Origin: Candidatus Kerfeldbacteria bacterium RIFCSPHIGHO2_12_FULL_48_17
GTDB taxonomy: Bacteria > Patescibacteriota > Patescibacteriia > HO2-48-17
Direction of reading: 5' to 3'
Assembly (NCBI GenBank): GCA_001818775.1
Contig: MHKD01000042.1
Span: 41,022 to 105,021 of the forward strand
DNA: 64,000 nucleotides
The notes under the pieces were generated by a model, which was not told the DNA's origin, searched no databases, and saw only the letters and a list, made by a program, of their open reading frames with translations. Positions 9,016 through 62,771 of this stretch are shown here, piece after piece (within the stretch, counting starts at the first letter, position 1; each line of letters begins with the position of its first letter). A program made the position numbers and the translations under genes.

Positions 9016-9024
9016 TATACGCCG

Positions 9025-10161
9025 ATGCCAAAAGAAAACAAAGAAAAGAAAAATACAGAAATAAAAATAAAGGAGACGCCCTTTTGGAAAAAATACAGGA
9101 TCGCCATTATTTTTGCGACGCTCGCGATCATCATTGCCGGTACCGGCATCACCTACGCGTACATGAACCAATCCACACCACCGGCGACAGCGAAAAAAGA
9201 AACAAAAAACACCCAGGCGGAAAAAACCACCCCGAGCAACGAACGACACCTCGACGGCAGGCGAGTCGCAATAAAAGATGCCAATAAATATCCGGTGGCT
9301 GTAATGATTGAAAATCTCAGCCCGGTACGGCCCCAAGCCGGACTGGGACAGGCGCAGGTGGTATATGAATCGTTGGTTGAAGGAGGGATAACGCGTTTCA
9401 TGGCCATCTATGACCTCAGTGAAAAAATTGATGAAATCGGCCCGGTGCGGTCAGCCAGACCCTACTACCTCGAATGGGTTTCAGAATATGACGCTCTGTA
9501 CGCGCACGCCGGGGGGAGCCCGGAAGCGCTGCAGGCGATTTCAGGTTTCAATATACATGATCTGAACCAGATCGGCGGGGCACAGGGCTATTACTGGCGA
9601 AGCGACAGCGTCCCGGCTCCACACAACCTTTTTACATCCACGGAGTTACTTACCCGTGCCATAAACGATAACAAACTCGCTGATGTAGAACCGACCTACA
9701 CTCCATGGACATTTACCGATGACCCGGAGGACAACAAAAAAAGCACGGACAAAGAAGTCCAAGCAACTGCAGCCTCGAACATCAGCATTGATTTTTCGAG
9801 CCCTTCCTACAAAGTGGAATATGCCTACGACGCGACCACAAAAGAGTACCTGCGTTCAAACGGCGGCGTACCACACACGGACAAAAACACGGAACAACAA
9901 ATTCGGGCTAAAACGGTGGTGGTTGTCAGCATACCGCCGGTTACTGATGTCGGAGAAAAGGGCAGGATCACCCTGAGTATTCATGGTGGAGGACCGGTGC
10001 GCATTGCCCGTTTTGGCGAAGTGATAACGGGCACGTGGAAAAAAGCCGATCGCACGGCGCGGACGGAATTTTTTGACGCACGTGGGGAAAAAATTGACCT
10101 GGGTCGGGGAAATATCTGGGTGGAAATTGTTCCGGAGGATAAGGGAGTGGAATTTAAGTAA
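9025..10161 (+). CDS. N-terminally membrane-anchored exported protein, paralogue 2 of the tandem pair
   Basis: Same architecture and motif blocks as 7915-9015 (roughly 45-50% identity by eye). Ends 5 nt before the ABC ATPase start. Confidence 0.55.
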   Translation: MPKENKEKKNTEIKIKETPFWKKYRIAIIFATLAIIIAGTGITYAYMNQSTPPATAKKETKNTQAEKTTPSNERHLDGRRVAIKDANKYPVAVMIENLSPVRPQAGLGQAQVVYESLVEGGITRFMAIYDLSEKIDEIGPVRSARPYYLEWVSEYDALYAHAGGSPEALQAISGFNIHDLNQIGGAQGYYWRSDSVPAPHNLFTSTELLTRAINDNKLADVEPTYTPWTFTDDPEDNKKSTDKEVQATAASNISIDFSSPSYKVEYAYDATTKEYLRSNGGVPHTDKNTEQQIRAKTVVVVSIPPVTDVGEKGRITLSIHGGGPVRIARFGEVITGTWKKADRTARTEFFDARGEKIDLGRGNIWVEIVPEDKGVEFK

Positions 10162-29604: not shown

Positions 29605-30072
29605 TTAAGAAATATTCAGTATCTTGAAAGTGAGGACATTTTTCGGGGTGGTGACTTCGACCTGTTCGCCGACTTTCTTGCCCAAAAATTTCTGCCCAAG
29701 CGGAGATTCATTCGAGATCATACCGGCGGAAGGATCAGCTTCATTGGAACCGGTAATCGTGTAAGAAAATTTCTGCCCTTCCGTATTTTCAACTTCAACC
29801 GTTGTGCCGATGTGAACATCTTCCACTCTCGATGCCTTCTTAATGACCGTAACACTCCGAATAATGTCTTCTAATTCCATAATACGACGATCAGTATTTG
29901 CCTGTTCTTCCTTGGCAGCCGTGTATTCAGCGTTTTCAGAAAGATCTCCCAATTCCTGCGCATCGCGAATCCTCTGCGCCACTTCACGTCGCTTGGTGTG
30001 TTTCAAATATTCAAGCTCTTCCTTGAGCTTATCCAAACCGGCCTGGGTAATGAATTTTTGCTTGGGAGTCAT
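29605..30072 (-). CDS. greA: Transcription elongation factor GreA
   Basis: MTPKQKFITQAGLDKLKEELEYLK...RIRDAQELGDLSENAEY. Start moved to Met-50 of the track ORF. Confidence 0.9.
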   Translation of the reverse strand: MTPKQKFITQAGLDKLKEELEYLKHTKRREVAQRIRDAQELGDLSENAEYTAAKEEQANTDRRIMELEDIIRSVTVIKKASRVEDVHIGTTVEVENTEGQKFSYTITGSNEADPSAGMISNESPLGQKFLGKKVGEQVEVTTPKNVLTFKILNIS

Positions 30073-30110
30073 ACAACAAAAACATGAGAAATAAAATTGA
30101 CAAAAGTAAG

Positions 30111-30137
30111 TATATAGGGCACAAAAAAAACTGTCAA
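30111..30137 (-). promoter_or_regulatory. Candidate sigma70-like promoter for greA
   Basis: Minus strand reads TTGACA, a 15-nt spacer, then TATATA, about 39 nt upstream of the greA ATG. Spacer is shorter than optimal. Confidence 0.3.
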
Positions 30138-30200
30138 GAGAATTGCCAATGGTCGTCAACAGGAAAGACGGAAAACCCAAAAAAACAGGCGTAAAAAGAC

Positions 30201-32129
30201 CTAACGAGTGAAATACCACTGTAAGGTTTCTCTGGCAATCGGCAGGGCGGCATCATTACCTCCACCGGCGCCTTCGACCAAAACCGCAATGACCACCTCA
30301 GGATTTTCATAGGGAGCAAAACCCACAAACCAGGAGTGCGTCTTCCCTCCGCTTCCAAACTGGGCCGTACCGGTTTTCCCGCCACTGCTTACCGGCAACT
30401 CTTGCAAAGAACGCGCACTGCCAGCGAGGACGGCTTGACGCATACCATCCTTGACGGTATTGAGGTGCTGAGGATCAATGAAACCCTCACGTCGAATAAC
30501 GGGATCAGGCGTGGAAGAAACACTGCCATCGGGATTCAAGAACTCCTTAACAAAACGCGGCTGATACAATTTTCCGCCGTTGATGATCGTAGCTATGGAA
30601 TTCGCCAGTTGCAGAGGGGTAACGAGAATCTGACCCTGACCGATGGCATAATGATACGTATCTCCGATATACCAACGCTCGCCATAGGTATCTTCCTTCC
30701 ACTGCTTCGTCGGCAAAAAACCACTCACCTCACTGGGCAAATCAATTCCGGATTTTTCACCAAAACCAAATTTTTTGGCGTATTCGGTCAGGCGCTCGAC
30801 ACCAAGCCCGTCATCGCCGTTATAGCCGCCACCAACAATGTAAAAAAATGTATTCACCGATTCAGCCAGGGCTTTGGTAACATTCGTCTGGCCATGACCG
30901 CCCGGCTTCCAATCAGGAAAAACCCACTGGCCAATCTCTATACCGCCAACACTGGAAACCGTCGTGGTCGGCGTAATGACCCCCTCCTGCAAACCGGCCG
31001 CGGCTACCACCGGCTTAAACGTCGACCCGGACGGATAGGTACCCTGAATGGGGCGGAATAAAAGCGGGTTATCAGGGTTCTGAAAAATCTCCTCAATTTT
31101 GGCACTATCCGTCCCCTGATGAAAAACATTGCTGTCATAGGTGGGAAAACTCAGACTCGCCAAAATTGAACCGTCACGGGGATCCAGAACCACAACCGCC
31201 GCATCGGTAGCATCAGAAGTTTCAAAAAATGCCCTAACCTGTTCATAAATAAACGTTTGCAAGTCCTGATCAAGGGAAAGAAGTAAATTTTTGCCGCCGG
31301 TAGATTCGCTCTCAGCAATGACTTCCTTCTCACGACCGAACGAATCAACTTCAATCTGTTTTTTACCATCTACGCCCTTGAGAACGCGCTCATACGACGC
31401 CTCAAGCCCGGTTTTCCCGACATAATCCGTGAGCAAATAATCAGCGTAAGCGGGATCTTCCACCTCAGCCTGACTGATTTTACCGGTATAGCCCAAAATA
31501 TGACCGAGAGACTCGTTGCCAAGATACTGCCGACGGGCCGAAGCAACCACGCGGACACCAGGAATCTCCTGCGCCTTAATCGTTAAAAGTATCGCCGTAT
31601 CCTGGGGAATATCCTCCACCAGGGTAATGGCCTGAAAGGAATAACCTGGGAGAGATTCAAGAAAGGCATCGACATTAACGTCTCTATCGGGAGGAAGATA
31701 TTGCTTCAGCAACTGCTTAAGACGCTGCCTCGCACCCTCGGCCTGGAGAAGATCACCGGGAATGACATCAATGCGAAAAGAAGGAATATTCTTCACCAAT
31801 AAATTCTGCCGACGGTCAAAAATAACACCGCGTGAAGCTTTGACGGTTTCCACCCTGACCCTGTTACCTTCTGCAGCGACCAAGTAATGATCTCCGGAAA
31901 AACCCTGAAGAAAAAACAATCTCCCCCACAGAATGAAAAAACCGACGAACAAAACGATGATGGGAAAAAACAACCGCATCTTTTCTGTTGTTTTTTTTCC
32001 AACCCGGGGTCGGATAGGCTGGGCATCAAAAGGATTCTCAACCGTATATTGCTGAGAATAATCGCTCAACCTGGCATCGAAAACATCCGGTTCCCCATGA
32101 AAAAAATAACGATTTTCGGAATGCTTCAT
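30201..32129 (-). CDS. mrdA: Class B penicillin-binding protein (PBP2-type transpeptidase, MrdA-like)
   Basis: N-terminal TM, dimerisation domain, and transpeptidase motifs STFKP, SSN-like and KTGTA. Immediately downstream of mreBCD. Confidence 0.85.
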   Translation of the reverse strand: MKHSENRYFFHGEPDVFDARLSDYSQQYTVENPFDAQPIRPRVGKKTTEKMRLFFPIIVLFVGFFILWGRLFFLQGFSGDHYLVAAEGNRVRVETVKASRGVIFDRRQNLLVKNIPSFRIDVIPGDLLQAEGARQRLKQLLKQYLPPDRDVNVDAFLESLPGYSFQAITLVEDIPQDTAILLTIKAQEIPGVRVVASARRQYLGNESLGHILGYTGKISQAEVEDPAYADYLLTDYVGKTGLEASYERVLKGVDGKKQIEVDSFGREKEVIAESESTGGKNLLLSLDQDLQTFIYEQVRAFFETSDATDAAVVVLDPRDGSILASLSFPTYDSNVFHQGTDSAKIEEIFQNPDNPLLFRPIQGTYPSGSTFKPVVAAAGLQEGVITPTTTVSSVGGIEIGQWVFPDWKPGGHGQTNVTKALAESVNTFFYIVGGGYNGDDGLGVERLTEYAKKFGFGEKSGIDLPSEVSGFLPTKQWKEDTYGERWYIGDTYHYAIGQGQILVTPLQLANSIATIINGGKLYQPRFVKEFLNPDGSVSSTPDPVIRREGFIDPQHLNTVKDGMRQAVLAGSARSLQELPVSSGGKTGTAQFGSGGKTHSWFVGFAPYENPEVVIAVLVEGAGGGNDAALPIARETLQWYFTR

Positions 32130-33478: not shown

Positions 33479-34540
33479 TTATTTCATTATTCTCTCGTCA
33501 TGCGTTGAGAGTACAAAAATATCACGCAATGCTTCAATATCCTCGAGAACACGGCCCGTACCGCGGACAACGGCCGTGAGTGGGTCATCAACCACCTTGA
33601 CGGGAACCTGGGTGATTTTCTGAATAACCTTGTCAAAACCACGCAATAAGGCACCGCCACCGGACATTAAAATCCCCCGTTCATAAATATCAGCCACCAG
33701 TTCCGGGGGCGTACTCTCCAAAGTATCTTTAATGGCGTCGGAAAACAGCTTCACGGAACGGCCGATGGCCTCGCGGACGTGTTCACTGCTCACCGTCATC
33801 TCGCGCGGCAGACCCGTGATGATATCACGACCGCGAACCTTGGATTCCAGAACGTCGACATCTTCGCTGGCCGAACCGATGGCGATTTTCAATTCTTCGG
33901 CCGTACGTTCACCAAGCAGCAGATTAAACTGATCGCGGTGGTAGGCAACGATATTGCGGTTAAGCTCATCCCCGGCGATGCGCAGTGATTTTGAAGTGAC
34001 CACCCCACCCAGAGCGACCACGGCAATTTCCGTCGTACCGCCACCGATATCCACAATCATGTGACCCGTGGCATCCTGAACCGGAACACGGGCGCCAATC
34101 GCCGCTGCCATGGGCTCTTCAATCAAAAACACCTCACGCGCACCGGCATTCAAAGCCGCGTCTTCAACGGCTTTTCTCTCAACTTCCGTAACACCTAAAG
34201 GAATACCAATGACAATGCGCGGACGGGGTAAAATAGTAAACGTCTCCCGATGAACCTTTTCAATAAAATGCTTCAGCATCTTTTCCGTAACTTCAAAATC
34301 AGAAACAACACCCTCAACCAAAGGCCGGATAGCAACAATATGACTGGGAGTCCTGCCAATCATATTGCGGGCTTCCTGACCAACGGCTAAAACATGACCG
34401 GTGCGTTCATTCACAGCCACAACCGAAGGCTCGTTAATCACAATGCCCTTATCACGAACATAGACCAGGGTATTGGCTGTACCCAAATCAATGCCCAAAT
34501 CCTTTGAAAATCTTCCAAAAAAATTCTTAATAATACCCAT
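33479..34540 (-). CDS. mreB: Rod shape-determining protein MreB (actin homologue), copy 1
   Basis: GIDLGTANTLVYV...DIGGGTTEIAV...GGGALLRG motifs of the MreB/actin fold. Confidence 0.9.
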   Translation of the reverse strand: MGIIKNFFGRFSKDLGIDLGTANTLVYVRDKGIVINEPSVVAVNERTGHVLAVGQEARNMIGRTPSHIVAIRPLVEGVVSDFEVTEKMLKHFIEKVHRETFTILPRPRIVIGIPLGVTEVERKAVEDAALNAGAREVFLIEEPMAAAIGARVPVQDATGHMIVDIGGGTTEIAVVALGGVVTSKSLRIAGDELNRNIVAYHRDQFNLLLGERTAEELKIAIGSASEDVDVLESKVRGRDIITGLPREMTVSSEHVREAIGRSVKLFSDAIKDTLESTPPELVADIYERGILMSGGGALLRGFDKVIQKITQVPVKVVDDPLTAVVRGTGRVLEDIEALRDIFVLSTHDERIMK

Positions 34541-39667: not shown

Positions 39668-40693
39668 CTAACGCGCCGTTAAACGAGTGGCAACAATACT
39701 GCGCTTATACGACTCAAGATTCTCCAAAGCGATGCCGGTTCCTTTCACAACGCACAACATGGGGTCTTCCGCCACATAAGCAGGAACATCCGTGGCCCTG
39801 GACAAAAGCTGATCAAGATTGCGCAGCTGACCGGAACCGCCGGTAATAACCATCCCCTTATCCATAACATCAGCGGCCAATTCCGGTGGTGTTTCCTGCA
39901 ACACCGATTTCACCGCCTGAATAATCGCGTTAAGCTCATCCTGAATGGCGTCAGTGACGTCATGCGATGTGAGGGTTATCGTACGCGGCAGACCGGAAAC
40001 AACATCACGACCACGCACGTCCATTGCTCCCATTTCTTTCAGGGGCAAAGCAGAGCCTATTTCTATTTTAATATGTTCGGCGGTCCGCTCGCCGATGGAG
40101 AGTCCGTATTTCTTACGAATGTATTCACTGATGGCCACATCAAATTTATTCCCACCGACGCGCACCGAGGTACTGGCAACAATGCCGCCCAAAGAAATAA
40201 CGGCTATTTCACTGGTACCGCCGCCAATGTCAATGACCATGTGCCCCGAAGCCGATCCAATGGGAATATTGGCGCCAATCGCCGCGGCCATGGGCTCCTT
40301 AATAATATATGTCGCCTTCGCGCCCGCCTGAACAGCAGCGTCAATAACGGCCTTGCGTTCGGTGGAGGTAATCCCGGCCGGAACAGCCACCATAACCTCG
40401 GGTCTGACAATACGCACGCCACCGATAGCCTTGTTAATAAAATAACGGAGCATGCTCTCGGTGGTTTTATAATCGGCAATGACTCCATCTTTCAACGGCC
40501 TGGAAGCGACGATGGAATCGGGTGTGCGACCGAGCATTTCTTTCGCCTCGTTGCCAACGGCCAAAACTTTTTTATCAGTAATGGAAATCGCAACAACCGA
40601 AGGCTCATTAATAACAATACCGCGCTTGGGAATATACACCAGCGTGTTGGCGGTACCGAGATCGATACCAATTTTTTTGATCAGATTAAACAT
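39668..40693 (-). CDS. MreB/Mbl-family actin homologue, copy 2
   Basis: IGIDLGTANTLVYI...DIGGGTSEIAV. Second MreB paralogue, embedded among envelope-glycan genes. Confidence 0.85.
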   Translation of the reverse strand: MFNLIKKIGIDLGTANTLVYIPKRGIVINEPSVVAISITDKKVLAVGNEAKEMLGRTPDSIVASRPLKDGVIADYKTTESMLRYFINKAIGGVRIVRPEVMVAVPAGITSTERKAVIDAAVQAGAKATYIIKEPMAAAIGANIPIGSASGHMVIDIGGGTSEIAVISLGGIVASTSVRVGGNKFDVAISEYIRKKYGLSIGERTAEHIKIEIGSALPLKEMGAMDVRGRDVVSGLPRTITLTSHDVTDAIQDELNAIIQAVKSVLQETPPELAADVMDKGMVITGGSGQLRNLDQLLSRATDVPAYVAEDPMLCVVKGTGIALENLESYKRSIVATRLTAR

Positions 40694-47736: not shown

Positions 47737-48348
47737 TTATTTGATTAACGAATACGTCTGCAAAATTTTATCGACATAACGCGCCATCATATCAACTTCA
47801 AAGTTCACTGTATCACCGGCCTTAAGTCCGCCTAAATTTGTAACCTCACGCGTATGCGATATAAGTCCCACGGCAAAACCGTCAGGCGTAGTCTCAACCA
47901 CCGTTAAACTGACACCATTCACGGCAATCGTGCCCTTGTACGCCAGAAATTTGTGAAAATCAGCCGGTATTTGAAAATATAAACGGAGATAATCACCATC
48001 AGCCCGAACTTCGCTCACCTGAGCCAGGCCGTCAACATGACCGAGTAAAAGATGGCCACCAATCGTGCCATTATAGAGTAGTGACTTTTCAATGTTACAA
48101 ACCGAGCCTTTCTTAAGGAAACCAAACGTTGTCAGCCGCAGTGTTTCCGGCATCGCTTCAACGGTGATGGAGTCAGCCGTTCTCTCGATCGCCGTAAAAC
48201 AGACACCATCCAAATTCACACTGTCGCCTATCTTGACATCAGAAAAATAATCCGGTTCGTTCACACGCACCTGAAAAAGTTTACCACCCGCCCGCGCCGG
48301 ACGCACGGCGGTTATTTCCCCCTGAGTTTGAATAATACCGGTATACAT
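47737..48348 (-). CDS. ribE: Riboflavin synthase alpha-subunit-like (tandem lumazine-binding domains)
   Basis: MYTGIIQTQGEITAVRP...GDSVNLDGVCFTAIE, repeated in the second half (GHLLLGHVDG...GDTVNFEVD). This is the two-barrel architecture of riboflavin synthase. Confidence 0.75.
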   Translation of the reverse strand: MYTGIIQTQGEITAVRPARAGGKLFQVRVNEPDYFSDVKIGDSVNLDGVCFTAIERTADSITVEAMPETLRLTTFGFLKKGSVCNIEKSLLYNGTIGGHLLLGHVDGLAQVSEVRADGDYLRLYFQIPADFHKFLAYKGTIAVNGVSLTVVETTPDGFAVGLISHTREVTNLGGLKAGDTVNFEVDMMARYVDKILQTYSLIK

Positions 48349-49425: not shown

Positions 49426-50235
49426 CTAACTGCTGGCGCTGGAATAACTTTTAAGCGCGCGGTTCCACAGGAAGCGGGCGGAAAGAAAGAATACCGCGGC
49501 TGTTAAAAACCCAAACACCACATACCACCAATCAACCTTGCCGAGAAAAATTTCAGCCGGAACAGCTCCCATGAAAACAACGGGTAAAATCGTTGCTGCC
49601 AAAAATCGGAAGAGCTTTCCCTGAAAAATCTGGCGCGGATAACGGCCAAAATTACTGATGTCCTGAACAAATATACTGATTGACCAGGTATTGATCGTCT
49701 TAAAATTAATGGTTCGTAATATAACCAAAAAACTCAGCAGAATAACGACGCCAAAGAAAAGAAAAAGAATGTATAAAATAATAATCCAGACCGGCGGAAA
49801 AGAATACAGAAAAACATAACGCCCCAGGAGAAAAAGTGCCAGTGAAAAATCAACAACCGTTTCCGGCTGTATTTCACTGAACCCGATCAGGGCCAGCGGA
49901 TGCATCGGCCGAACCAACATTCGGTCAAAAGAACCAATGCGAAGCATATAATCAAAGCGCCACATACCGCTCATAAGGAAAAGCCAGGAAATACTCTGTA
50001 TAATAAAATAGGAAGCGAGAATAACCAGCGCCTCATCATGACTCCAACCGGCAACGGCGGGTATATTGGCATACAAAAATTCAATAAACAGCAACGAAGA
50101 AACGGCGCTCAACACATTAATACTGAACTCAGCAAAAAAACTGGCACGGTAGGCCAAACGTACCTGTAAAGCCAGGCGCAAATAGCGCCAGAAAACAACA
50201 AAGTATCTTTGGATTGAATAAAAAATATTGCTCAT
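49426..50235 (-). CDS. ABC-2 family transporter permease (paralogue pair A, copy 1)
   Basis: Six-TM ABC-2 topology. Similar to 51068-51883. Start set so that it does not overlap the upstream gene. Confidence 0.6.
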   Translation of the reverse strand: MSNIFYSIQRYFVVFWRYLRLALQVRLAYRASFFAEFSINVLSAVSSLLFIEFLYANIPAVAGWSHDEALVILASYFIIQSISWLFLMSGMWRFDYMLRIGSFDRMLVRPMHPLALIGFSEIQPETVVDFSLALFLLGRYVFLYSFPPVWIIILYILFLFFGVVILLSFLVILRTINFKTINTWSISIFVQDISNFGRYPRQIFQGKLFRFLAATILPVVFMGAVPAEIFLGKVDWWYVVFGFLTAAVFFLSARFLWNRALKSYSSASS

Positions 50236-50236
50236 A

Positions 50237-51019
50237 CTAACCACCATACGCTTCATAACGTCGCAACCCATAATACCAGATAGATTGGCCGGCTGCAGCA
50301 AAAAATACTGTCCAGGCTATCAGCATCAGGGCAAAAAATCCGGCGTGCGAAAAATCACCCGCCAACATCCGAGCTGGAACATAATAAAAATACTGAAACG
50401 GCAAAAAAGCATTGATCTTGATCAGCCACTGCGGAAAGGCATCAACCGGTAAAATCCTGCCGCCCAGGAAACCGGCAATAAAAATCCAGGACAGAATAAA
50501 ACCCCAGGCACTGTCGGTGAAAAACGCAATCGTACCCAGAAAAAAATAAACAACGAACATCAAAAAAAACATTCCCACGACAAAAACCAGATACATCAAA
50601 AAAGCTTCGAGGAGTAGATAATGACCGAATATAAGGACGCAAAAACCAATAACATAGAGTGGGATAATAAAAATACCGTTGCCGGTGCGATGGCCAAGGT
50701 TAATGCAAAACCAGTACCAAAATCCGCGCAAAGGTTTCAGAATAAAATTGAGAACATTCCCCTGCCGTATATCATCGGACAAAATCCAGGCTACGGCATC
50801 ACTCGCCGACAAAGAAATAAAAGAAACACCAAAATAGTACAAGAGAATATCGCGAAATTCAAAACCAGCCAGGCTGTTGCCTTCGGAATAAATCGTCGAC
50901 CACAACAAAACAAAAACACCCAGCATCAGGAATTCCTTGAAAATGAGAAAAACCAGATTAAAACGGTAGGCCAGGGCGTCCTGGAACGATAAAAAAACGG
51001 TTTTAAGATATTTGTGCAT
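50237..51019 (-). CDS. ABC-2 family transporter permease (paralogue pair B, copy 1)
   Basis: Polytopic. N-terminal FQDALAYRFNLVF block is similar to WQQYLAYRLNLFL of 51885-52694. Confidence 0.6.
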   Translation of the reverse strand: MHKYLKTVFLSFQDALAYRFNLVFLIFKEFLMLGVFVLLWSTIYSEGNSLAGFEFRDILLYYFGVSFISLSASDAVAWILSDDIRQGNVLNFILKPLRGFWYWFCINLGHRTGNGIFIIPLYVIGFCVLIFGHYLLLEAFLMYLVFVVGMFFLMFVVYFFLGTIAFFTDSAWGFILSWIFIAGFLGGRILPVDAFPQWLIKINAFLPFQYFYYVPARMLAGDFSHAGFFALMLIAWTVFFAAAGQSIWYYGLRRYEAYGG

Positions 51020-51067
51020 AAGTTTACATATCTTAGCACAAAAATAAACCGAAGTAAAACCGAAAAC

Positions 51068-51883
51068 CTAATTACTGGCGCTGGAATAGTGTTTGATGGC
51101 AAATTTCCAAAACAAGAGCGACCCGAAAAAAACCGCACAGGCAATGACAAAGGCAAAAATAAGGTACCAGGGATCGGAACGGTGGAGTAAAATTTCTGCC
51201 GGCAGGGTGGCAAAAAGACTGACCGGCAGGATGAAAAGCAAAACCGTGCGAACGTGGCCGGTAAATGCAGAAACAGGATATTTCGCTGCCATAAAAACGC
51301 GCTCCATTAAACGCCCAACACCCTGCGGATTGACCGTCCAGAAAGCGACGCCGGCTAGAAATATCATCAAGCCGAAGTAAAACATAACCCCCAGGAAAAG
51401 AAACAGCAAAAAAAGTGTAAAATCAAAGGCCGTGAACACGAACCCACCCTGGGTAAAAACATACCACCAGAGAAAAATAACCGGCGGCAAGCTGGTCACA
51501 TCAAACCAGTCAATAATACGGAAAGAGACAAAAAACAAGGGGCTTATCGGCCTGATGAGAGTGAGATCAAATTCCCCACGCAGCAAAAGATCAGGAAACC
51601 AGTACGCCAAATTTCTGTGAAAGGTAATAATCACAATCACCTCAAAGGTGAGATAGATTGTTGTCAAAAGCAAGATCTCGTTGAAATCCCAACCGGCGAA
51701 TGATTTGACATGAAAAAAAATCGCCTGAAAAAAGACAACAACAAGAATGGCGCGCAGCATCTTGGCAAAAACGCCAATAAAAAAAGTGCCACGTGAGGAT
51801 ATATTCACCATAAGACTCACTTTTGCCATAACTTGAAAGACGTGGAGATACTTGAAAAATTTTCGAAAAAATTTCATAAGCAT
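51068..51883 (-). CDS. ABC-2 family transporter permease (paralogue pair A, copy 2)
   Basis: Similar to 49426-50235 (FAGWDFNEILLLTTIYLTFE vs VAGWSHDEALVILASYFIIQ). Confidence 0.6.
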   Translation of the reverse strand: MLMKFFRKFFKYLHVFQVMAKVSLMVNISSRGTFFIGVFAKMLRAILVVVFFQAIFFHVKSFAGWDFNEILLLTTIYLTFEVIVIITFHRNLAYWFPDLLLRGEFDLTLIRPISPLFFVSFRIIDWFDVTSLPPVIFLWWYVFTQGGFVFTAFDFTLFLLFLFLGVMFYFGLMIFLAGVAFWTVNPQGVGRLMERVFMAAKYPVSAFTGHVRTVLLFILPVSLFATLPAEILLHRSDPWYLIFAFVIACAVFFGSLLFWKFAIKHYSSASN

Positions 51884-51884
51884 A

Positions 51885-52694
51885 TTATATACCCGAAGCC
51901 GAATAAACTTTCATCCCCCGCCGCCAGAGCACGACGGACACGGAAAAAATAATCAGCAGCCAGGCAACAGCCGTCAGGAATTCAATAGCAATTTCTGTAG
52001 CGGAAAAATTACCCAGATACAACTGCATCGGAACATACGCAAAAAACTTAAACGGCAGAAGATTGAGAAACTGCAACCAACCCGCCGGAAACAGACTCAG
52101 GGGTAAAAGTATACCCGAAGCCAACTCCATGATAACACGCAGCAGCGTGCGCGGACCCCAGGTCTGATCAAACCAAAACGCCATGATACTGAAAATATAG
52201 AACAAACCAAAGTGTATCAGCGCGGCCAGCAGCGTGAAAAAAAGGAGCAGGAAAGCCGCAAAAACAGAAACCGGTGGAACCAGGCGACCTGCAAAAAACC
52301 AAAAAATAACAGCGTAGGCAAACAAGCCGATAAAAAAAGTAAAATATTTCCGGCACATATCCTTGGCCAACCACATAAGGTTCGGACTGACGGGTTTGGC
52401 AAGCCAGGCCGAGAGACCACCCTTGTTGATATCATCACTAATATCATCCCCCTGACGGTGGAGTAATAAAAAAGAAGAAATCACGCCGCCACCGAGAACA
52501 TAGGTTATCATCTCCGGCTGCGAAAATCCGGCAATAACCTGCGCTGAACCAAAACGAAACAACAATGTCCAGACAGCAACCGTAATAAGCGTCTGAAAAA
52601 TTCCGCCAAAGACTTCCAGAAACAAATTTAAACGGTACGCCAAATACTGCTGCCAGGTGAGTTTAAAAATCGAAACATATTTCCGCAGTTGCAT
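51885..52694 (-). CDS. ABC-2 family transporter permease (paralogue pair B, copy 2)
   Basis: Similar to 50237-51019. Confidence 0.6.
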   Translation of the reverse strand: MQLRKYVSIFKLTWQQYLAYRLNLFLEVFGGIFQTLITVAVWTLLFRFGSAQVIAGFSQPEMITYVLGGGVISSFLLLHRQGDDISDDINKGGLSAWLAKPVSPNLMWLAKDMCRKYFTFFIGLFAYAVIFWFFAGRLVPPVSVFAAFLLLFFTLLAALIHFGLFYIFSIMAFWFDQTWGPRTLLRVIMELASGILLPLSLFPAGWLQFLNLLPFKFFAYVPMQLYLGNFSATEIAIEFLTAVAWLLIIFSVSVVLWRRGMKVYSASGI

Positions 52695-52704
52695 GTCCGC
52701 TGCC

Positions 52705-53940
52705 TCAAGCCAATAAAATATCAAGCATAGCGTGAACGCGACGTGTCCACGTATGCGGCGCCACAGCCTGCTGACGGGCTCCGCCTTGCGCTTCTGAATT
52801 CATTTCCAGGACGCGCTTGATATGAAAAGAAAACTCCTCAGCAGTCAACGCAACCTGTATGTATTCAGGAAACAAATCAACGCCGGCAACAGGAGTACTA
52901 ACGACCGGCTTTCCGCAGGCCAGATATTCGTAAATTTTCATCGGGTTCATCGTTTTTGTGAAGGCATCAACCCGATGCGGCAGTATGCCGACATCAAAGT
53001 GCTGTATATATGCCGGCAACTCAGCGTACGTCTTCTGCCCGAGGAACCGAACGTTGGGGTATTTCTGTAATTTGGCCGCACCGGCGCCGGGCCATACCAA
53101 ACCGACAAACACAAATGCCCACTCGGGATGCGCCGCGACAACGTCCTCAAGTAATTCAACATCAAGCCGGCTCTGAATGATACCGTGATACCCGATAATC
53201 GGCTGCATAATATCAGAAAACTCCGCCGGCCGCGGTCTCTGCGCAGCATAATGATCGCTGTCAACCCCATTGGAAATCCAGTGCACCGAAGCATGACCGG
53301 GAAATAAACTGTGGAGATCTTTAGCTACCGTGAAAATAGCCCGCGCATGAGTCGCAATGGTTCGATAATTTTGCCTAATACGATCGCGAATCACCACATA
53401 CTCAGGATGATGCGACCAATCATCAACCGCATCAAATACGGCCACGTCATGGGGAATGGAACGGAAACAGTCGACTTCAAGCGGATTATATGACCACAAA
53501 ACCACGTTGTGAAACTGAAGCTTCTTCATGATTTCCGGCACATGATCCAGGGTAAGCCCGGAAAAAGTATACACCTTTGACGATACGCTCTGACGCGTAA
53601 CCTTATACGTCAAGCCGCGGACAGCAACATTCCTGCCGCCCTGCCACAGCCCCGCCAGTATATATTCTTTCAGCTTCCGCTTCACCGTTTGCGGAACAAA
53701 ATCAACCGACAAAATCTGACGTACGCGTTTATCCTTACTCAGCGCTTCGAGTATAGCCAGATTACGGTTAAAAACGCCCGCATAAAATTTTTTTGCCAAT
53801 GCCGGCTGCCATCGCACGAAACGCCTCAGCCAACTAACCGAAGAACCATGCCATTCAAAATCAGCCGACATGTTCAGCATGACGATATCGATTGGTTCAT
53901 TCTTTCGCAAACTCATAGACGCTACCTTAATGGAGGTCAT
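52705..53940 (-). CDS. Glycosyltransferase, GT-B fold (GT1/GT4-like)
   Basis: C-terminal GT-B nucleotide-binding half (VVSTPVAGVDLFPEYI...). N-terminal half is divergent. Confidence 0.6.
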   Translation of the reverse strand: MTSIKVASMSLRKNEPIDIVMLNMSADFEWHGSSVSWLRRFVRWQPALAKKFYAGVFNRNLAILEALSKDKRVRQILSVDFVPQTVKRKLKEYILAGLWQGGRNVAVRGLTYKVTRQSVSSKVYTFSGLTLDHVPEIMKKLQFHNVVLWSYNPLEVDCFRSIPHDVAVFDAVDDWSHHPEYVVIRDRIRQNYRTIATHARAIFTVAKDLHSLFPGHASVHWISNGVDSDHYAAQRPRPAEFSDIMQPIIGYHGIIQSRLDVELLEDVVAAHPEWAFVFVGLVWPGAGAAKLQKYPNVRFLGQKTYAELPAYIQHFDVGILPHRVDAFTKTMNPMKIYEYLACGKPVVSTPVAGVDLFPEYIQVALTAEEFSFHIKRVLEMNSEAQGGARQQAVAPHTWTRRVHAMLDILLA

Positions 53941-57076: not shown

Positions 57077-57460
57077 TTATGAGTTAAAACGAAGTCGGTT
57101 CATTCGGTCTTTGCGCTGATTGTTGTTAGGCAACATATTGTAAACAGCACCGCCAATAAGTTTACGGGGATCCTTTTTCAAAACTTCAGCAGCCGTCTGG
57201 GTTTTCAGCGATCCGGGATAGCGGGAATGACGGTAAAAAAGCGCCTGCTCAAATTTACGGCCCGTCATTTTCACCTGGGCAGCATTGGTAATCTCAACAA
57301 TATCGCCACCGTCAATATTATTCTTGATGGTGCGCTTGTGTTTCCCCATAAGCAAAATCGAAATCTTCGTAGCTAATCGGCCCAGCGGAACATTGGCAGC
57401 ATCAATAATATGCACTTTACGAACGATATTCTTGGATGGGGAAACAGAAATCTTTTTCAT
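57077..57460 (-). CDS. rplM: 50S ribosomal protein L13
   Basis: VHIIDAANVPLGRLATKISILLMGKHK. Start at the Met of MKKISVSP. Confidence 0.9.
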   Translation of the reverse strand: MKKISVSPSKNIVRKVHIIDAANVPLGRLATKISILLMGKHKRTIKNNIDGGDIVEITNAAQVKMTGRKFEQALFYRHSRYPGSLKTQTAAEVLKKDPRKLIGGAVYNMLPNNNQRKDRMNRLRFNS

Positions 57461-57464
57461 ACGT

Positions 57465-57827
57465 TTATACGAATTCAATGATAGCCATTTCTGCTGCATC
57501 GCCCTGGCGCAGGCCGACTTTCACCGTACGGGTATATCCACCCGGACGTTTGGTATATTTGGGGCCAAGATCTTTGATCAAAATATCAATAGCCATTTGC
57601 GCTTCGGCACCATTGCCGAGCTGACGCAAAAGCTCACGGCGGGTTTGTAAACCGCTTTTCCCGGCCTTGGTTACAAGTCTTTCAACACGAGAACGGAGCA
57701 CTGAAGCTTTGGCACGGGTGGTCTTCACTTTCTTGTGTATAACCATTTTGCACAGCAAAGAACGCAACAAAGCCGCACGAGCCGGTGCCTTTCTATCGAG
57801 TACTTTTTTACGTTTCCTGTGTCGCAT
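57465..57827 (-). CDS. rplQ: 50S ribosomal protein L17
   Basis: MRHRKRKKVLDRKAPARAALLRSL...GGYTRTVKVGLRQGDAAEMAIIEFV. Confidence 0.9.
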   Translation of the reverse strand: MRHRKRKKVLDRKAPARAALLRSLLCKMVIHKKVKTTRAKASVLRSRVERLVTKAGKSGLQTRRELLRQLGNGAEAQMAIDILIKDLGPKYTKRPGGYTRTVKVGLRQGDAAEMAIIEFV

Positions 57828-57840
57828 ACAATATCAAAAT

Positions 57841-58623
57841 TTATTCCTTTTCTTTATCAGTTTCGGCCTCCGCCTCGACCGGGGCCGTCTTCTTCGACTC
57901 GCCGTCATCAATTTCCGGCATTTCAACACCCTCCGGAGCAGCCTGACCGCTCAATAAAACAAAGTGATCAACCAAAATCTGCGCGGAATCCTTAAACGCC
58001 TGCTCAGGGGTGATGGAACCGTCCGTTTCAATATCCAACGTCAAAGAGTTGTAGTTGGTATACTGCTCGACACGGACATTTTGCACGGTGAAATTCACGG
58101 TGCGAACCGGTGAATAAATGGCATCAACTTCAATAGTGCCAATTTCCAAATCCTTTTTCTCCTGACTCTCAACCGGCACATAGCCGCGGCCATTCTGCAC
58201 CCACAAATCCATGGTCAATTCACCGCTCTTCGTAGTAATGGTGGCAATTTCATGATCAGGATTGACGATTTCCACCTGGGCATCCTTGGTGATATCCTTG
58301 GCCGTCACGGTCTTTTGGCCCTTGGCATGAAGCGTCAATTTCACCGGTTCATCAGAATGCGAAATCAGACGCAGCTTTTTGATGTTAAGCATAATGGAAA
58401 CAACGTCTTCCTTGACATCAGGCACTGCTGAAAACTCATGATCAGCGCCCTTAATCTTTATAGCCGTAACCGCAGATCCCGGTAAAGAAGATAAAAGTAC
58501 GCGACGAAGGGTGTTGCCGATCGTGGTACCGTAACCCGGGTGCAATGGCTGCATGATAATCTTCGCACGATTCTCGCTGACAGTTTCCACACTAATGCTT
58601 GCGGGAAGTTTTATATCTTGCAT
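57841..58623 (-). CDS. rpoA: DNA-directed RNA polymerase alpha subunit, N-terminal domain only. No alpha-CTD, and an acidic C-terminal tail.
   Basis: Alpha-NTD motifs (IIMQPLHPGYGTTIGNTLRRVLLSSLPGSAVTAIKI). The 260-aa protein ends ...AAPEGVEMPEIDDGESKKTAPVEAEAETDKEKE with no helix-hairpin-helix CTD. Confidence 0.85.
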   Translation of the reverse strand: MQDIKLPASISVETVSENRAKIIMQPLHPGYGTTIGNTLRRVLLSSLPGSAVTAIKIKGADHEFSAVPDVKEDVVSIMLNIKKLRLISHSDEPVKLTLHAKGQKTVTAKDITKDAQVEIVNPDHEIATITTKSGELTMDLWVQNGRGYVPVESQEKKDLEIGTIEVDAIYSPVRTVNFTVQNVRVEQYTNYNSLTLDIETDGSITPEQAFKDSAQILVDHFVLLSGQAAPEGVEMPEIDDGESKKTAPVEAEAETDKEKE

Positions 58624-58687: not shown

Positions 58688-59326
58688 CTATTTCGAATAG
58701 AATTCGACGATTAAGCTCACATTCAACGCATCTACCAGTTCTTTTGCCTGCGGCGCGGCAGCAACCGTGATCTTCATCGCCTTCTTGTCCACCGCCAACC
58801 ACTCCGGAACCTGATTCATGGTTGTTTCCTTCTGAACGGCCAGCATATCTTCCCAAATCTTCTTCTTGGCTTTGGTGGAGCTCACTTCAACCACATCACC
58901 CTCGCGCAAAACATAGGAAGGAATCGTAACCTTGCGCTTATTGACGAGGAAATGACCATGAGTGACAAACTGCCGGGACTGACGACGCGACTGGGCAAAA
59001 CCGGCGCGGTACACGGCATTATCCAAACGCGCCTCAAGCATTCCCACAAAAAATTCACCGGTATTGCCTTTTTTCTGAGTAGCAGCCTCAAAAGTGTTGC
59101 GGAACTGGGCTTCACGTAAACCGTACATCCGCTTGACTTTTTGCTTGGCGCGGAGTTGGGTGCCGTATTCCGTCATTTGCATACGACGACCACCACCGGA
59201 GGAACCCGGGGCATAATTACGCTTGACGATGGCGCATTTTGAAGTATAACAACGCTCACCCTTGAGAAAGAGTTTTTCGCCTTCGCGGCGGCACCGTTTA
59301 CATTGTGGACCAAGATCCTTTGCCAT
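58688..59326 (-). CDS. rpsD: 30S ribosomal protein S4
   Basis: MAKDLGPQCKRCRREGEKLFLKGERCYTSKCA (zinc ribbon) plus the S4 domain. Confidence 0.9.
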   Translation of the reverse strand: MAKDLGPQCKRCRREGEKLFLKGERCYTSKCAIVKRNYAPGSSGGGRRMQMTEYGTQLRAKQKVKRMYGLREAQFRNTFEAATQKKGNTGEFFVGMLEARLDNAVYRAGFAQSRRQSRQFVTHGHFLVNKRKVTIPSYVLREGDVVEVSSTKAKKKIWEDMLAVQKETTMNQVPEWLAVDKKAMKITVAAAPQAKELVDALNVSLIVEFYSK

Positions 59327-59344
59327 AAGAGAAAACAAGAGGAA

Positions 59345-59752
59345 TTAAACGCGACGCGGTTTGGGTCGGCGGACACCGTTGTGCGGTATGGGCGTAACAT
59401 CTCGGATGGATACCACATTCAAACCATTGGCCCCCAAAGCACGAATCGCCGCTTCACGACCACTGCCGATTCCCTTTACATTCACATCAACATCTTTCAA
59501 ACCGTAATCTCGGGCTTTTTCCACCGCCAATTTGACAATCACACCGGCTGCATACGGTGTAGCTTTCTTCGGACCCTTAAAACCGGCTTTTCCGGCGCTG
59601 GCCCAGGAGAGAATATTCCCCTGCTGATCAGCCAATGAAACGATCGTGTTGTTATAGGTAGCCTGAATAAAAGCCAAACCACGAGCGACGTGGTGACGCT
59701 TTTTCTTTTTCTTGATGGGAGCCGCGGATGAAGTTGTCGGTGTCGTAGCCAT
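59345..59752 (-). CDS. rpsK: 30S ribosomal protein S11
   Basis: [40 protein letters not shown]...[13 protein letters not shown]. Confidence 0.9.
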
Positions 59753-59755
59753 AGT

Positions 59756-60148
59756 TTATGTCTTTTGATCAGCTTTCTTTCTACCGCTGGTCGTGGTGCG
59801 ACGAACGTTACCGCGACGGGTACGGGAATTGGTCTTGGTTCGTTGTCCACGCACCGGCAAACCTTTCTGGTGCCGGGCGCCACGGTAGGTGGAAATATCC
59901 TTTAAACGCTTGATATTATTGAAAATATCCCGACGAAGTTCACCTTCGATGCGATAACCGCCCTTTTCAATGGCTTCGCGGAGTTTATTGACTTCGGCGT
60001 CCGTCAGATCTTTGGCGCGCGTATCAGGATTGATACCGGTTTGCGCCAAAATTTTTCGGGCAACCGTTAAACCAATACCATAAATAGAGGGAAGCGCGTA
60101 TTCGATACGCTTATCTTTTGGTAAATTTACACCGGCAAGTCGTGCCAT
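59756..60148 (-). CDS. rpsM: 30S ribosomal protein S13
   Basis: [26 protein letters not shown]. Confidence 0.9.
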
Positions 60149-60166: not shown

Positions 60167-60280
60167 TTAACCCTGACGCTGTTTATGCTTGGGATTGTGA
60201 CACAACACAACCACGACCCGCTTCCGACGGATAACCTTACAATCTTTGCACATCTTTTTTACGGAAGCTCGTACTTTCAT
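60167..60280 (-). CDS. rpmJ: 50S ribosomal protein L36 (37 aa)
   Basis: Missed by the ORF track (<60 aa). Manual translation of the minus strand gives [37 protein letters not shown], a C..C..C..H zinc ribbon. It sits at the canonical position between infA and rpsM. Confidence 0.85.
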
Positions 60281-60286
60281 ACGTGG

Positions 60287-60577
60287 TTATCTACGATAAA
60301 CAATTCGGCCCTTGGTGAGGTCATAGGGCGTCATTTCCACCAGCACGGTGTCGCCAGGCAAGATGCGAATTTTATTCATGCGCATTTTACCGGACAGGTG
60401 CGCCAACACCTGATGGCCATTGCCGAGAACGACCTTAAAATGGGCGTTGGGAAGCAGTTCTTCTACTTCCCCCTCCAGTTCAAGAAAACCTTTTTTATTC
60501 GTTTTCCCGATATTAGCATCACCCTTGGGCTGTTCCGGCTTTTGGGCTGGCGTCGTTGACGGCTGCGAAGTAGGCAT
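60287..60577 (-). CDS. infA: Translation initiation factor IF-1 with a ~25-aa low-complexity N-terminal extension
   Basis: OB-fold core ([62 protein letters not shown]), preceded by [24 protein letters not shown]... Confidence 0.85.
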
Positions 60578-60794
60578 TATTATACAGTATGTTACAAAAA
60601 AAATGTCCTCAAGCGCTGTTCGGCGGCTTGATAGTTGGTGATGCTACAGAAATTGTGCTGAGTTTTCAACCATTCAAACCCGAATGCGTGAGTTTCCGAA
60701 AGTGAAGTCATTATAGCAGAAAAAGGATATACGTCAAGTTAGGGGAAGAAAACACATGAGAAACAAATAAAAAAGCTAAAACTGGGGGAAATAT

Positions 60795-62669
60795 TTACTT
60801 TTTTGGTTCAAGTACCGCCTTGATCCGGCGTACTCCAGCCGAAACCGCTTCTTCTTTGGTTATCGTATAATGTCCCAGTTCACCGGTATGCTGCACATGG
60901 GGACCGCCACAAATCTCAAAGGAAAAATCACCCATGGTGTACACCTTCACCTTGTCACCATAGCGTTCTTCAAAATTGCCCATAGCACCGCGGCGTTTGG
61001 CTTCATCGACCGTCATCACTTCAAAACTCACCGGCAGGTCGCGGCTAATCTGGAGATTCACCATATCTTCCACGGCCTTGAGCTGCTCAGACGTAAGTTT
61101 AGTAGGATGGGCGAAATCAAAACGCATGCGTTCGGGCGTGATATTACTTCCCTTCTGCGTGACGTGATCCCCGAGAATATTGCGCAGGGCTTTGTAGGTC
61201 AGATGCGTGGCCGTGTGAAAACGCGTCGATTCAGCCGAATGATCCGCCAGACCGCCTTTGAATTTGTGCTTGGAGGCAGTGCGCGACAGATCCTGGTGTT
61301 TCTTCATTTCGGATTTGAAAGCGTTCAGGTCAACGTTGAGCCCCGCTTCCTTGGCCATTTCCAGCGTTATCTCAACCGGAAAACCATAACTCGTAAACAG
61401 ATCAAACGCATCTTTGCCCGTGATATCACCCTTCGCGCGCAATTTTTCAAATTGCCGAATACCCTTCTCGAGCGTGCGACGGAATTTCGTTTCCTCTTTT
61501 TGAATTTCGGCTTTGATTTGCTCGCGGCGATCATGCAGACTCGGGTACGCTTCCTTATATATATCAATAAACGTTTCGGTGATGGCAGCAGCAAACATTT
61601 CGCCGATGCCGAGCTGGTTGGCGAAACGAACAGCACGGCGAATGAGGCGACGGGTAAAATAACCCTGGTCTTTATTGGAAGGTGCGGCACCGTCAGCGAT
61701 GAGGAAAGTGGCAGCACGCATGTGGTCGAGGATGACGCGGAAAGCATGGGTGTGCGCGGGTTGTTCAGCGGCGTATGTTTTGCCAGAGAGTTTCTCGAGT
61801 TGGGTGCGGGCCGGGGTAAAAATATCGAGCAGAAACACATCAGGATTGTGATTATGAGCAGCGGCCAGGCGCTCAAGGCCACCACCAAAATCCACATTCT
61901 TTTTTTCGAGCGGCACAAAACCGGCGTCGGTTTTTTTGTAGGCCATGAAAACGTTGTTGCCGATTTCCATGAAACGCCCACAGTCGCAGTTGACATGGCA
62001 TGGTTGTTTGGCAAATTGCGAGGCGGCGTGAATGGCCGCGCCTTTTTCCTCACCGTAAAAATCCCAGAACATTTCTGCGTCTGGGCCACCGGGTTCACCG
62101 ACAGGCATTTTGTCTGGTATACCAGCGCGTGACCACCAATTTTTCTTGGCGTCGTAATAGAAAATCCGTCCGCCCTGCATGCCTTTTTCCCAGGCGTTGT
62201 CTATAATAGGTGCGTTGACGTTTTTGCTGGCAAACTGCTCCTGCCACAACTTGGCCGATTCTTCATCGCGCGGGACGCCAATCTTTTCATTGCCCCGGAA
62301 AACCGTGATATAGAGGTTGCGCGGGTCGAGCTTGAGGGTGTCGGTGAGAAATTCAAACATCCAGGGAATCTGTTCTTTCTTGAAATAATCGCCGAGTGAC
62401 CAGTTACCGAGCATTTCGAAAAAGGTGGTGTGACGATTATCGCCGACTTCTTCAATGTCATCGGCCCGGAACGATTTTTGCGAATCGGTCAGACGCGTGC
62501 CCTGGGGATGCGGCTGACCGAGGAGGTAGCTGATCATGGGTTGCATACCCGAGCCGGTGAAAAGCGTCGTGGGATCATTTTCGGGCAGCAAAGAAGCCGA
62601 GGGGAGAATCGTATGTCCCCTGTCTTGGAAAAATTTGAGATATTGTGCGCGGATTTCTTGTGTGTTCAT
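60795..62669 (-). CDS. alaS: Alanyl-tRNA synthetase (catalytic, tRNA-recognition and editing domains). No C-terminal C-Ala/DHHA1 domain.
   Basis: N-terminus MNTQEIRAQYLKFFQDRGHTILPSASLLPENDPTTLFTGSGMQPM. Editing-domain HxxxH (FHTATH) and CGGxH (CGGPHV). About 624 aa, versus ~870 for canonical AlaRS. Confidence 0.85.
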   Translation of the reverse strand: MNTQEIRAQYLKFFQDRGHTILPSASLLPENDPTTLFTGSGMQPMISYLLGQPHPQGTRLTDSQKSFRADDIEEVGDNRHTTFFEMLGNWSLGDYFKKEQIPWMFEFLTDTLKLDPRNLYITVFRGNEKIGVPRDEESAKLWQEQFASKNVNAPIIDNAWEKGMQGGRIFYYDAKKNWWSRAGIPDKMPVGEPGGPDAEMFWDFYGEEKGAAIHAASQFAKQPCHVNCDCGRFMEIGNNVFMAYKKTDAGFVPLEKKNVDFGGGLERLAAAHNHNPDVFLLDIFTPARTQLEKLSGKTYAAEQPAHTHAFRVILDHMRAATFLIADGAAPSNKDQGYFTRRLIRRAVRFANQLGIGEMFAAAITETFIDIYKEAYPSLHDRREQIKAEIQKEETKFRRTLEKGIRQFEKLRAKGDITGKDAFDLFTSYGFPVEITLEMAKEAGLNVDLNAFKSEMKKHQDLSRTASKHKFKGGLADHSAESTRFHTATHLTYKALRNILGDHVTQKGSNITPERMRFDFAHPTKLTSEQLKAVEDMVNLQISRDLPVSFEVMTVDEAKRRGAMGNFEERYGDKVKVYTMGDFSFEICGGPHVQHTGELGHYTITKEEAVSAGVRRIKAVLEPKK

Positions 62670-62771
62670 ATCGTCACTGTAATAAATTTGGTGGGTTTTG
62701 GCAATATTAAAAGAGGACTCATATAAAACATATGAGTCCAACCTCCTTTCTGGGAAAGAACGAATCAAAAA

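Follow-up and report, generated by a model that had tools for sequence, protein, structure and literature searches.

An RNA Polymerase Alpha Subunit Lacking the C-Terminal Domain in Candidatus Kerfeldbacteria and Related Patescibacteria

The DNA that was analysed, a 64-kb stretch referred to here as the window, comes from a groundwater member of the Patescibacteria, Candidatus Kerfeldbacteria, which NCBI taxonomy places within the Parcubacteria group of that phylum. Its rpoA gene (57841 to 58623, minus strand) begins with ATG and consists of 260 codons followed by a TAA stop at 57841 to 57843. The gene order is infA, rpmJ, rpsM, rpsK, rpsD, rpoA, rplQ, rplM, and rpsI, and it is the same in a relative (L082). 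On the minus strand, infA (IF1) is at 60287 to 60577, rpmJ at 60167 to 60280, rpsM at 59756 to 60148, rpsK at 59345 to 59752, and rpsD (S4), directly upstream of rpoA, at 58688 to 59338 (ORF list and Pfam). The rpsD-rpoA-rplQ context of the canonical operon is therefore present in the window. The gene for L17, rplQ (57465 to 57827, minus strand), encodes 120 aa and is complete, with residues 20 to 120 matching positions 1 to 97 of the 97 in Pfam model PF01196. An earlier note on this DNA had placed rplQ 14 nt downstream of rpoA. The two genes are indeed adjacent, but the spacer (57828 to 57840, minus strand) is 13 nt long, with the rplQ ATG at 57827, so that the stated distance was off by one base. 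In related genomes, too, rplQ lies directly after rpoA at 78 of the 80 loci, and the gap between them has a median of 18 nt.

A candidate sigma-70-type promoter of the operon, found by consensus scan only, lies upstream of infA (60710 to 60737, minus strand). It reads TTGACG-16 nt-(TG)TATAAT, agrees with the consensus at 11 of 12 positions, has an extended -10 element, and is preceded by a T-rich tract upstream of the -35 element. The infA product is 96 aa long and carries a Pro/Lys-rich N-terminal extension of ~25 residues before the usual S1-like domain of ~72 aa. The longest rplM ORF (57077 to 57499, minus strand) and rplQ share 35 nt. If rplM instead starts at the internal ATG at 57460, 4 nt past the rplQ stop, its product is the 127-aa protein that was called in an independent assembly (L084), and this ATG is probably the true start.

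The window RpoA is identical to a database protein annotated as RpoA of a Candidatus Kerfeldbacteria bacterium (P0001). Its N-terminal domain (alpha-NTD), the domain for dimerisation and beta/beta' assembly, occupies residues 1 to 226 (57946 to 58623, minus strand) according to Pfam, AF2, Foldseek, and alignment with E. coli. PF01193 (RNA_pol_L) matched residues 26 to 221 with 83.5 bits, and PF01000 (RNA_pol_A_bac), inserted in RNA_pol_L, matched residues 55 to 171 with 109.9 bits. An AF2 model made from a 57-sequence alignment had a mean pLDDT of 88.6, with values of >90 over the folded residues 9 to 222, and Foldseek searches of the PDB with this model returned alpha-NTD chains with target-normalised TM-scores of up to 0.94 and rmsd values of 1.2 to 1.8 A. 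The NTD is colinear with those of solved structures, to which it is 42 to 48% identical, and R40 and R41 of the LRR motif, the equivalents of E. coli R44 and R45 (R41 corresponding to R45), are invariant among relatives. By its NTD and by synteny the protein is identified as an rpoA orthologue, as an atypical member without the C-terminal domain (CTD).

The profile for the alpha-CTD (PF03118) gave no match in the 260-aa RpoA even at E<=1. Two NCBIfam models of the full-length subunit were matched above their cutoffs but only in their N-terminal parts: NF003519 (286.5 bits; cutoff, 277) over positions 2 to 244 of 320, and TIGR02027 (267.2 bits; cutoff, 227.8) over positions 2 to 211 of 298. Scores for six other rpoA subfamily models fell under the respective cutoffs because the C-terminal third of the protein is missing. 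A global alignment with what we take to be the E. coli alpha sequence is colinear and ends near E. coli residue 260, at the start of the CTD fold. Alignments with PDB alpha subunits, which support this independently, are confined to RpoA residues ~6 to 240 (for example, residues 10 to 250 of the E. coli chain). Thus, the protein resembles the canonical RpoA of E. coli, B. subtilis, and T. thermophilus (~310 to 330 aa) in its colinear NTD and its rpsM-rpsK-rpsD-rpoA-rplQ position, but it lacks the helix-hairpin-helix CTD of ~80 aa and stops about 20 residues past the E. coli linker position. The earlier note's account of a 260-aa RpoA with an intact NTD and no CTD is borne out by these results.

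In place of the inter-domain linker, the protein ends in an acidic tail, residues 227 to 260 (57844 to 57945, minus strand), recognised from composition and pLDDT. Of its 34 residues, 12 are D or E and 4 are K or R, for a net charge of about -8, and it terminates in ...PEIDDGESKKTAPVEAEAETDKEKE, just as the earlier note had quoted it when describing an acidic tail instead of a CTD. Residues 230 to 260 had pLDDT values of 46 to 58 and no secondary structure in the AF2 model. The tail has neither an RGRP motif nor any basic patch, its basic residues being the 4 already mentioned. Among the closest relatives its length varies from 16 to 39 aa, and its sequence is unconserved and unalignable even among the closest of them (P0002 to P0007).

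Relatives were examined for the same truncation, and it is widely shared. RpoA proteins with neither PF03118 nor a CTD motif made up about 86 of the best 120 database proteins listed; they were 234 to 301 aa long, and some were encoded on contigs of 0.6 to 1.17 Mb. A CTD was present in 32 to 33 of the best 120, for example in Doudnabacteria. RpoA was also CTD-less (232 to 302 aa) in 72 of the 80 closest species-representative genomes. The CTD-less lineages include Kerfeld-, Veblen-, Uhr-, and Falkowbacteria and the "Parcubacteria group," whereas Doudnabacteria and some others keep the CTD. A phmmer search of 1.84 billion cluster representatives gave 9443 matches, and among the best 150 of these (50%-identity clusters) 85 had a CTD, about 40 were CTD-less proteins of the Patescibacteria type, and the rest look frameshifted. 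Close relatives from other samples, 89% (L081) and 73% (L082) identical, have the same truncation and synteny. Judging from these sequences, a large branch of the Patescibacteria commonly has a CTD-less alpha.

Some of the database records had features of their own. Three RpoA-like representatives (P0125, 569 aa; P0126, 526 aa; P0174, 664 aa) are ~2 times the normal length, with two matched stretches each, and could be tandem duplications, fusions, or assembly chimeras. Several metagenome-assembled genome records titled 'uncultured Gammaproteobacteria' (binchicken; L004, L012, L015, L017 to L019, and others) contain a CTD-less RpoA of the Patescibacteria type in Patescibacteria-like operons, and their titles look like placeholder or wrong taxonomy.

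When the NTDs were placed on a neighbour-joining tree, the types of tail that follow them clustered by clade, and therefore the CTD-less state is inherited, although a domain of 220 aa is too short to tell one loss from several. The reading that we consider very likely is that the alpha-CTD has been genuinely lost, by inheritance, in Kerfeldbacteria and neighbouring clades, so that alpha serves as an assembly scaffold only, the tail is an unconstrained remnant of the linker, and promoter strength comes from sigma. The window RpoA has the naturally CTD-less pattern, with a complete NTD and an ORF that ends within or just after the linker.

One alternative is that the 34-residue acidic tail is functional in itself, either as a nucleic-acid mimic that suppresses nonspecific DNA binding or as a docking site for a basic partner. 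Acidic mimics of this kind are known from the C-terminal tail of the Firmicute delta subunit and from region 1.1 of sigma-70. The net charge would suit such a role, as would the recurrence of acidic tails or linkers across CTD-less relatives, which may mean that selection acts on composition and not on sequence. However, neither the sequence nor the length of the tail is conserved in the closest relatives, the tail is fully disordered in the AF2 model, and the whole Uhrbacteria-type clade (232 to 236 aa) is essentially tail-less. As for a basic partner, no RGRP motif, AT-hook, or other obvious candidate is encoded in any real ORF of the 64-kb window. A functional tail is thus unlikely.

It would also be conceivable that the function of the CTD is provided in trans, either by an alpha-CTD protein of its own or by another, full-length rpoA (as in Francisella) located outside the window, which covers 64 kb of the genome. 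Two alpha paralogues do exist in at least one bacterium (PDB 6wmp_A and 6wmp_B). A CTD HMM was built from the CTDs of 33 relatives and E. coli and was run with filters off against every stop-to-stop segment in the six frames of the window. It found no free-standing CTD (best E=2), in keeping with the earlier note's statement that the CTD is not split off nearby, and the window contains no second rpoA copy. A tblastn match at 30333 to 30470 on the plus strand (E 0.019, 24 bits), antisense to the PBP2 gene, was dismissed as noise. When the CTD HMM was run over the surroundings of rpoA in 80 related genomes (475 kb in all), it matched only eight rpoA genes with an internal CTD and nothing outside rpoA, and within +/-3 kb of rpoA there was no free-standing CTD in any of the 72 CTD-less relatives. 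Furthermore, the window rpoA occupies the canonical position between rpsD and rplQ with a strongly conserved NTD, and the AT-hook and Lys-rich tails of sister clades, described below, would be difficult to account for if the cells still had a CTD. By the established mechanism, a CTD that is not tethered to alpha would be unable to recruit the polymerase. From the 64-kb window and these rpoA neighbourhoods, we regard provision of the CTD in trans as very improbable.

The sequence at the 3' end of rpoA was reproducible. The gene and 41 nt downstream had 0 mismatches in four independent assemblies (three from ENA and one from JGI), and the identical protein is encoded on 9 contigs. Both of the other frames stop before rplQ, and no frame can hold the ~240 nt needed for a CTD because rplQ starts 13 nt after the stop. 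In the +1 frame the last ~70 nt (57828 to 57915, minus strand) read as an Arg/Lys-rich peptide, ...TASRRRRPRSRRRPKLIKKRNKF, that stops 9 nt before rplQ. In the 89%-identical relative a stop breaks this frame, and in the 73%-identical one the encoded peptide is not basic; the basic reading is taken as an expected by-product of GAR-rich acidic codons. A 3' frameshift, which the earlier note had named as something that might reveal a continuing ORF, cannot reveal a CTD here because rplQ follows after 13 nt and the independent assemblies agree. Since the truncation is common to related genomes, an assembly error is not the explanation, and the artefact reading (a sequencing or assembly frameshift or a truncated pseudogene) is already refuted; a programmed +1 frameshift to the basic end ...SRRRRPRSRRRPKLIKKRNKF, which only superficially resembles the basic tails of relatives, was rejected because the +1 peptide is not conserved in the two relatives, and this whole family of explanations is exceedingly improbable.

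If, as seems very likely, the CTD has been lost by inheritance, the NTD-only alpha would still be expected to dimerise and to be the platform on which beta and beta' are assembled into the core enzyme. We infer that the 260-aa alpha assembles an alpha2-beta-beta' core from the conservation of the fold and the invariant R40/R41. The 34-residue tail would be a disordered, unconstrained remnant of the linker between domains. Because no alpha-CTD would be tethered to it, such a polymerase would neither read UP elements nor be recruited by class I activators, and the contacts that the alpha-CTD makes with other factors, sigma region 4 among them, would also be lost. Promoter strength would come from contacts of sigma with the core promoter, and any regulators would have to touch sigma, beta, beta', or the alpha-NTD. 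Like the assembly function, all of these consequences for transcription are expectations; the absence of UP-element reading and alpha-CTD-dependent activation, which the earlier note had also proposed, would be soundly expected from E. coli and B. subtilis biochemistry. No transcription-factor families were found by Pfam among about 50 window ORFs, where GreA was the only exception. Where a lineage has few regulators, loss of the CTD could plausibly be tolerated and become fixed.

Previous work on alpha subunits without a CTD is consistent with this interpretation. The alpha-NTD dimer nucleates assembly of beta and beta', and without the CTD there is no UP-element binding or class I response (PMC8321222). 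The CTD is dispensable for assembly and basal transcription, as E. coli truncations demonstrated (PMC8321222, its references 64 to 67). B. subtilis with a CTD-deleted alpha grows with a doubling time of 1.9 h, versus 1.0 h, and expresses its ribosomal and secondary-carbon genes less strongly (PMC4495994). The engineered E. coli alpha(1-235) and alpha(1-256) and B. subtilis RpoA-del have the same architecture as the window protein, assemble core, and support basal transcription, in B. subtilis with growth at about half the rate. However, these are laboratory constructs in organisms that depend on the alpha-CTD, whereas the truncation in the window is natural and apparently long-standing. Archaeal RpoD/RpoL and eukaryotic Rpb3/Rpb11 are also assembly-platform subunits with dimerisation and insert domains only and no DNA-binding CTD. 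In contrast to archaeal RpoD, the window protein is clearly bacterial (30.6 bits against NF001988, for which the cutoff is 153), and it is expected to form a homodimer, unlike the archaeal and eukaryotic heterodimers.

Natural loss of the alpha-CTD has been noted before in Hodgkinia and Tremblaya, which live as endosymbionts of insects, and in microalgal (Euglena) chloroplasts, and one sentence in Rangel-Chavez et al. (2021, PLoS One) states that the loss "is also present in Parcubacteria" (PMC8321222). In all of these, as in the window, the NTD is kept, the CTD is missing, and UP-element recognition is not expected. The paper cited there for Parcubacteria contains no such statement; the word 'polymerase' is absent from its main text, and rpoA appears only in the supplement, listed as a core gene. 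Apart from the PMC8321222 sentence, the full-text literature searched contained no work on RpoA, the alpha-CTD, or AT-hooks in Patescibacteria/CPR, and a 2024 review of the Patescibacteria makes no mention of RNA polymerase, sigma factors, or promoters. A CTD-less alpha in Parcubacteria is thus on record but uncharacterised, so it is real and not new. Compared with that remark, the loss is documented here gene by gene, and it is structured by clade, with several alternative tails. Unlike Hodgkinia and Tremblaya, which are 150-kb endosymbionts, the Kerfeldbacteria type comprises ~1-Mb bacteria of the episymbiont type.

The newer element is outside the window, in the AT-hook and Lys-rich tails that take the place of the CTD in sister clades. 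When tail states were classified over 200 related RpoA sequences, the CTD was present in 42, an RGRP AT-hook tail in 45, and a Lys-rich C-terminal end (e.g., ...KPKKKKASKKK) in 50; another 34 were essentially bare (<=240 aa; Uhrbacteria-type), ending in ...LKDLTYSE, and the remaining 29 were acidic or other. The window RpoA and its nearest relatives (P0002 to P0006) fall in the acidic or bare group. Sister proteins with AT-hook or Lys-rich tails share with it the CTD-less NTD backbone (50 to 57% identity), the operon position, and an acidic disordered segment after the NTD, but they end in KKRGRPKK or K-rich stretches, whereas the window protein has no such basic patch.

The pattern KK-RGRP-KK was found in 43 of the 45 hook sequences, 3 to 7 residues from the C-terminus; examples are the 3' ends of rpoA in loci L005 to L007, L013, L028, and L064 and the proteins P0016 and P0036. 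The linker before the hook has a median length of 33 aa, and D and E make up 36% of it. In pairwise comparisons the identity of the hook decamer is 0.81 and that of the linker 0.16, which indicates selection on the motif. The Pfam AT_hook model (PF02178) matches the hooks at the right place with 11 to 12 bits, under its cutoff of 17.4. Proteins of the Lys-rich clade (P0019, P0027, P0030, and others) end in ...EKPKKKKASKKK, and those of the Uhrbacteria-type clade (L022, L044, L052, and L057) stop right after the NTD with the conserved end already given. No publication on AT-hook or Lys-rich RpoA tails of Patescibacteria was found in the literature searched.

AT-hooks read the minor groove of A/T-rich DNA, as the alpha-CTD does on UP elements, so the tails would be miniature surrogates of the CTD. 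It is possible, though we hold this only tentatively, that the alpha-CTD was lost in a large part of the Patescibacteria and that minimal DNA-binding tails on an acidic linker, a single canonical AT-hook or a Lys-rich stretch, took its place repeatedly, with the Kerfeldbacteria lineage of the window and the Uhrbacteria type representing natural nulls. If so, the polymerase of the null lineages would make no alpha-mediated contact with upstream DNA. UP-like sequence was assessed as A/T content and W-run length upstream of predicted promoters in the fetched loci, grouped by tail class. The A/T content at ~-61 to -38 exceeded that of the locus by 0.064 in the AT-hook class, 0.072 in the Lys-rich class, and 0.035 in the bare class, a trend in the direction that surrogate tails would predict but not a significant one (p 0.1 to 0.3).

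The alpha-CTD is usually presented as universal in bacterial polymerase, and here a natural polymerase would do without it in a free-standing bacterium with a ~1-Mb genome. Neither UP elements nor class I activation of the CRP type should be assumed in predicting promoters and regulons of CTD-less Patescibacteria, and quality filters based on length or domains should not flag their rpoA as truncated. The AT-hook, Lys-rich, acidic, and bare tails may indicate how few parts are needed to restore contacts with DNA upstream of promoters.

Other genes in the window also had unusual features. The alanyl-tRNA synthetase (60795 to 62768, minus strand) is only 657 aa long, with the Pfam catalytic and second additional domains and no C-terminal C-Ala/DHHA1. 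In GreA (29605 to 30219, minus strand; 204 aa) the match to the Pfam GreA domains does not start until residue 56, which implies an N-terminal extension of ~55 aa or a mis-set start. The window contains several sets of paralogues: four consecutive ABC2_membrane_6 permease genes (49426 to 52724, minus strand), two adjacent DUF3048 genes (7915 to 10161, plus strand), and two MreB genes (33479 to 34540 and 39668 to 40693, minus strand). Nelson and Stegen (2015) reported that riboflavin synthesis genes were missing from the Parcubacteria genomes they examined; in the window, the product of the gene at 47737 to 48348 (minus strand) resembles riboflavin synthase and has two Lum_binding domains.
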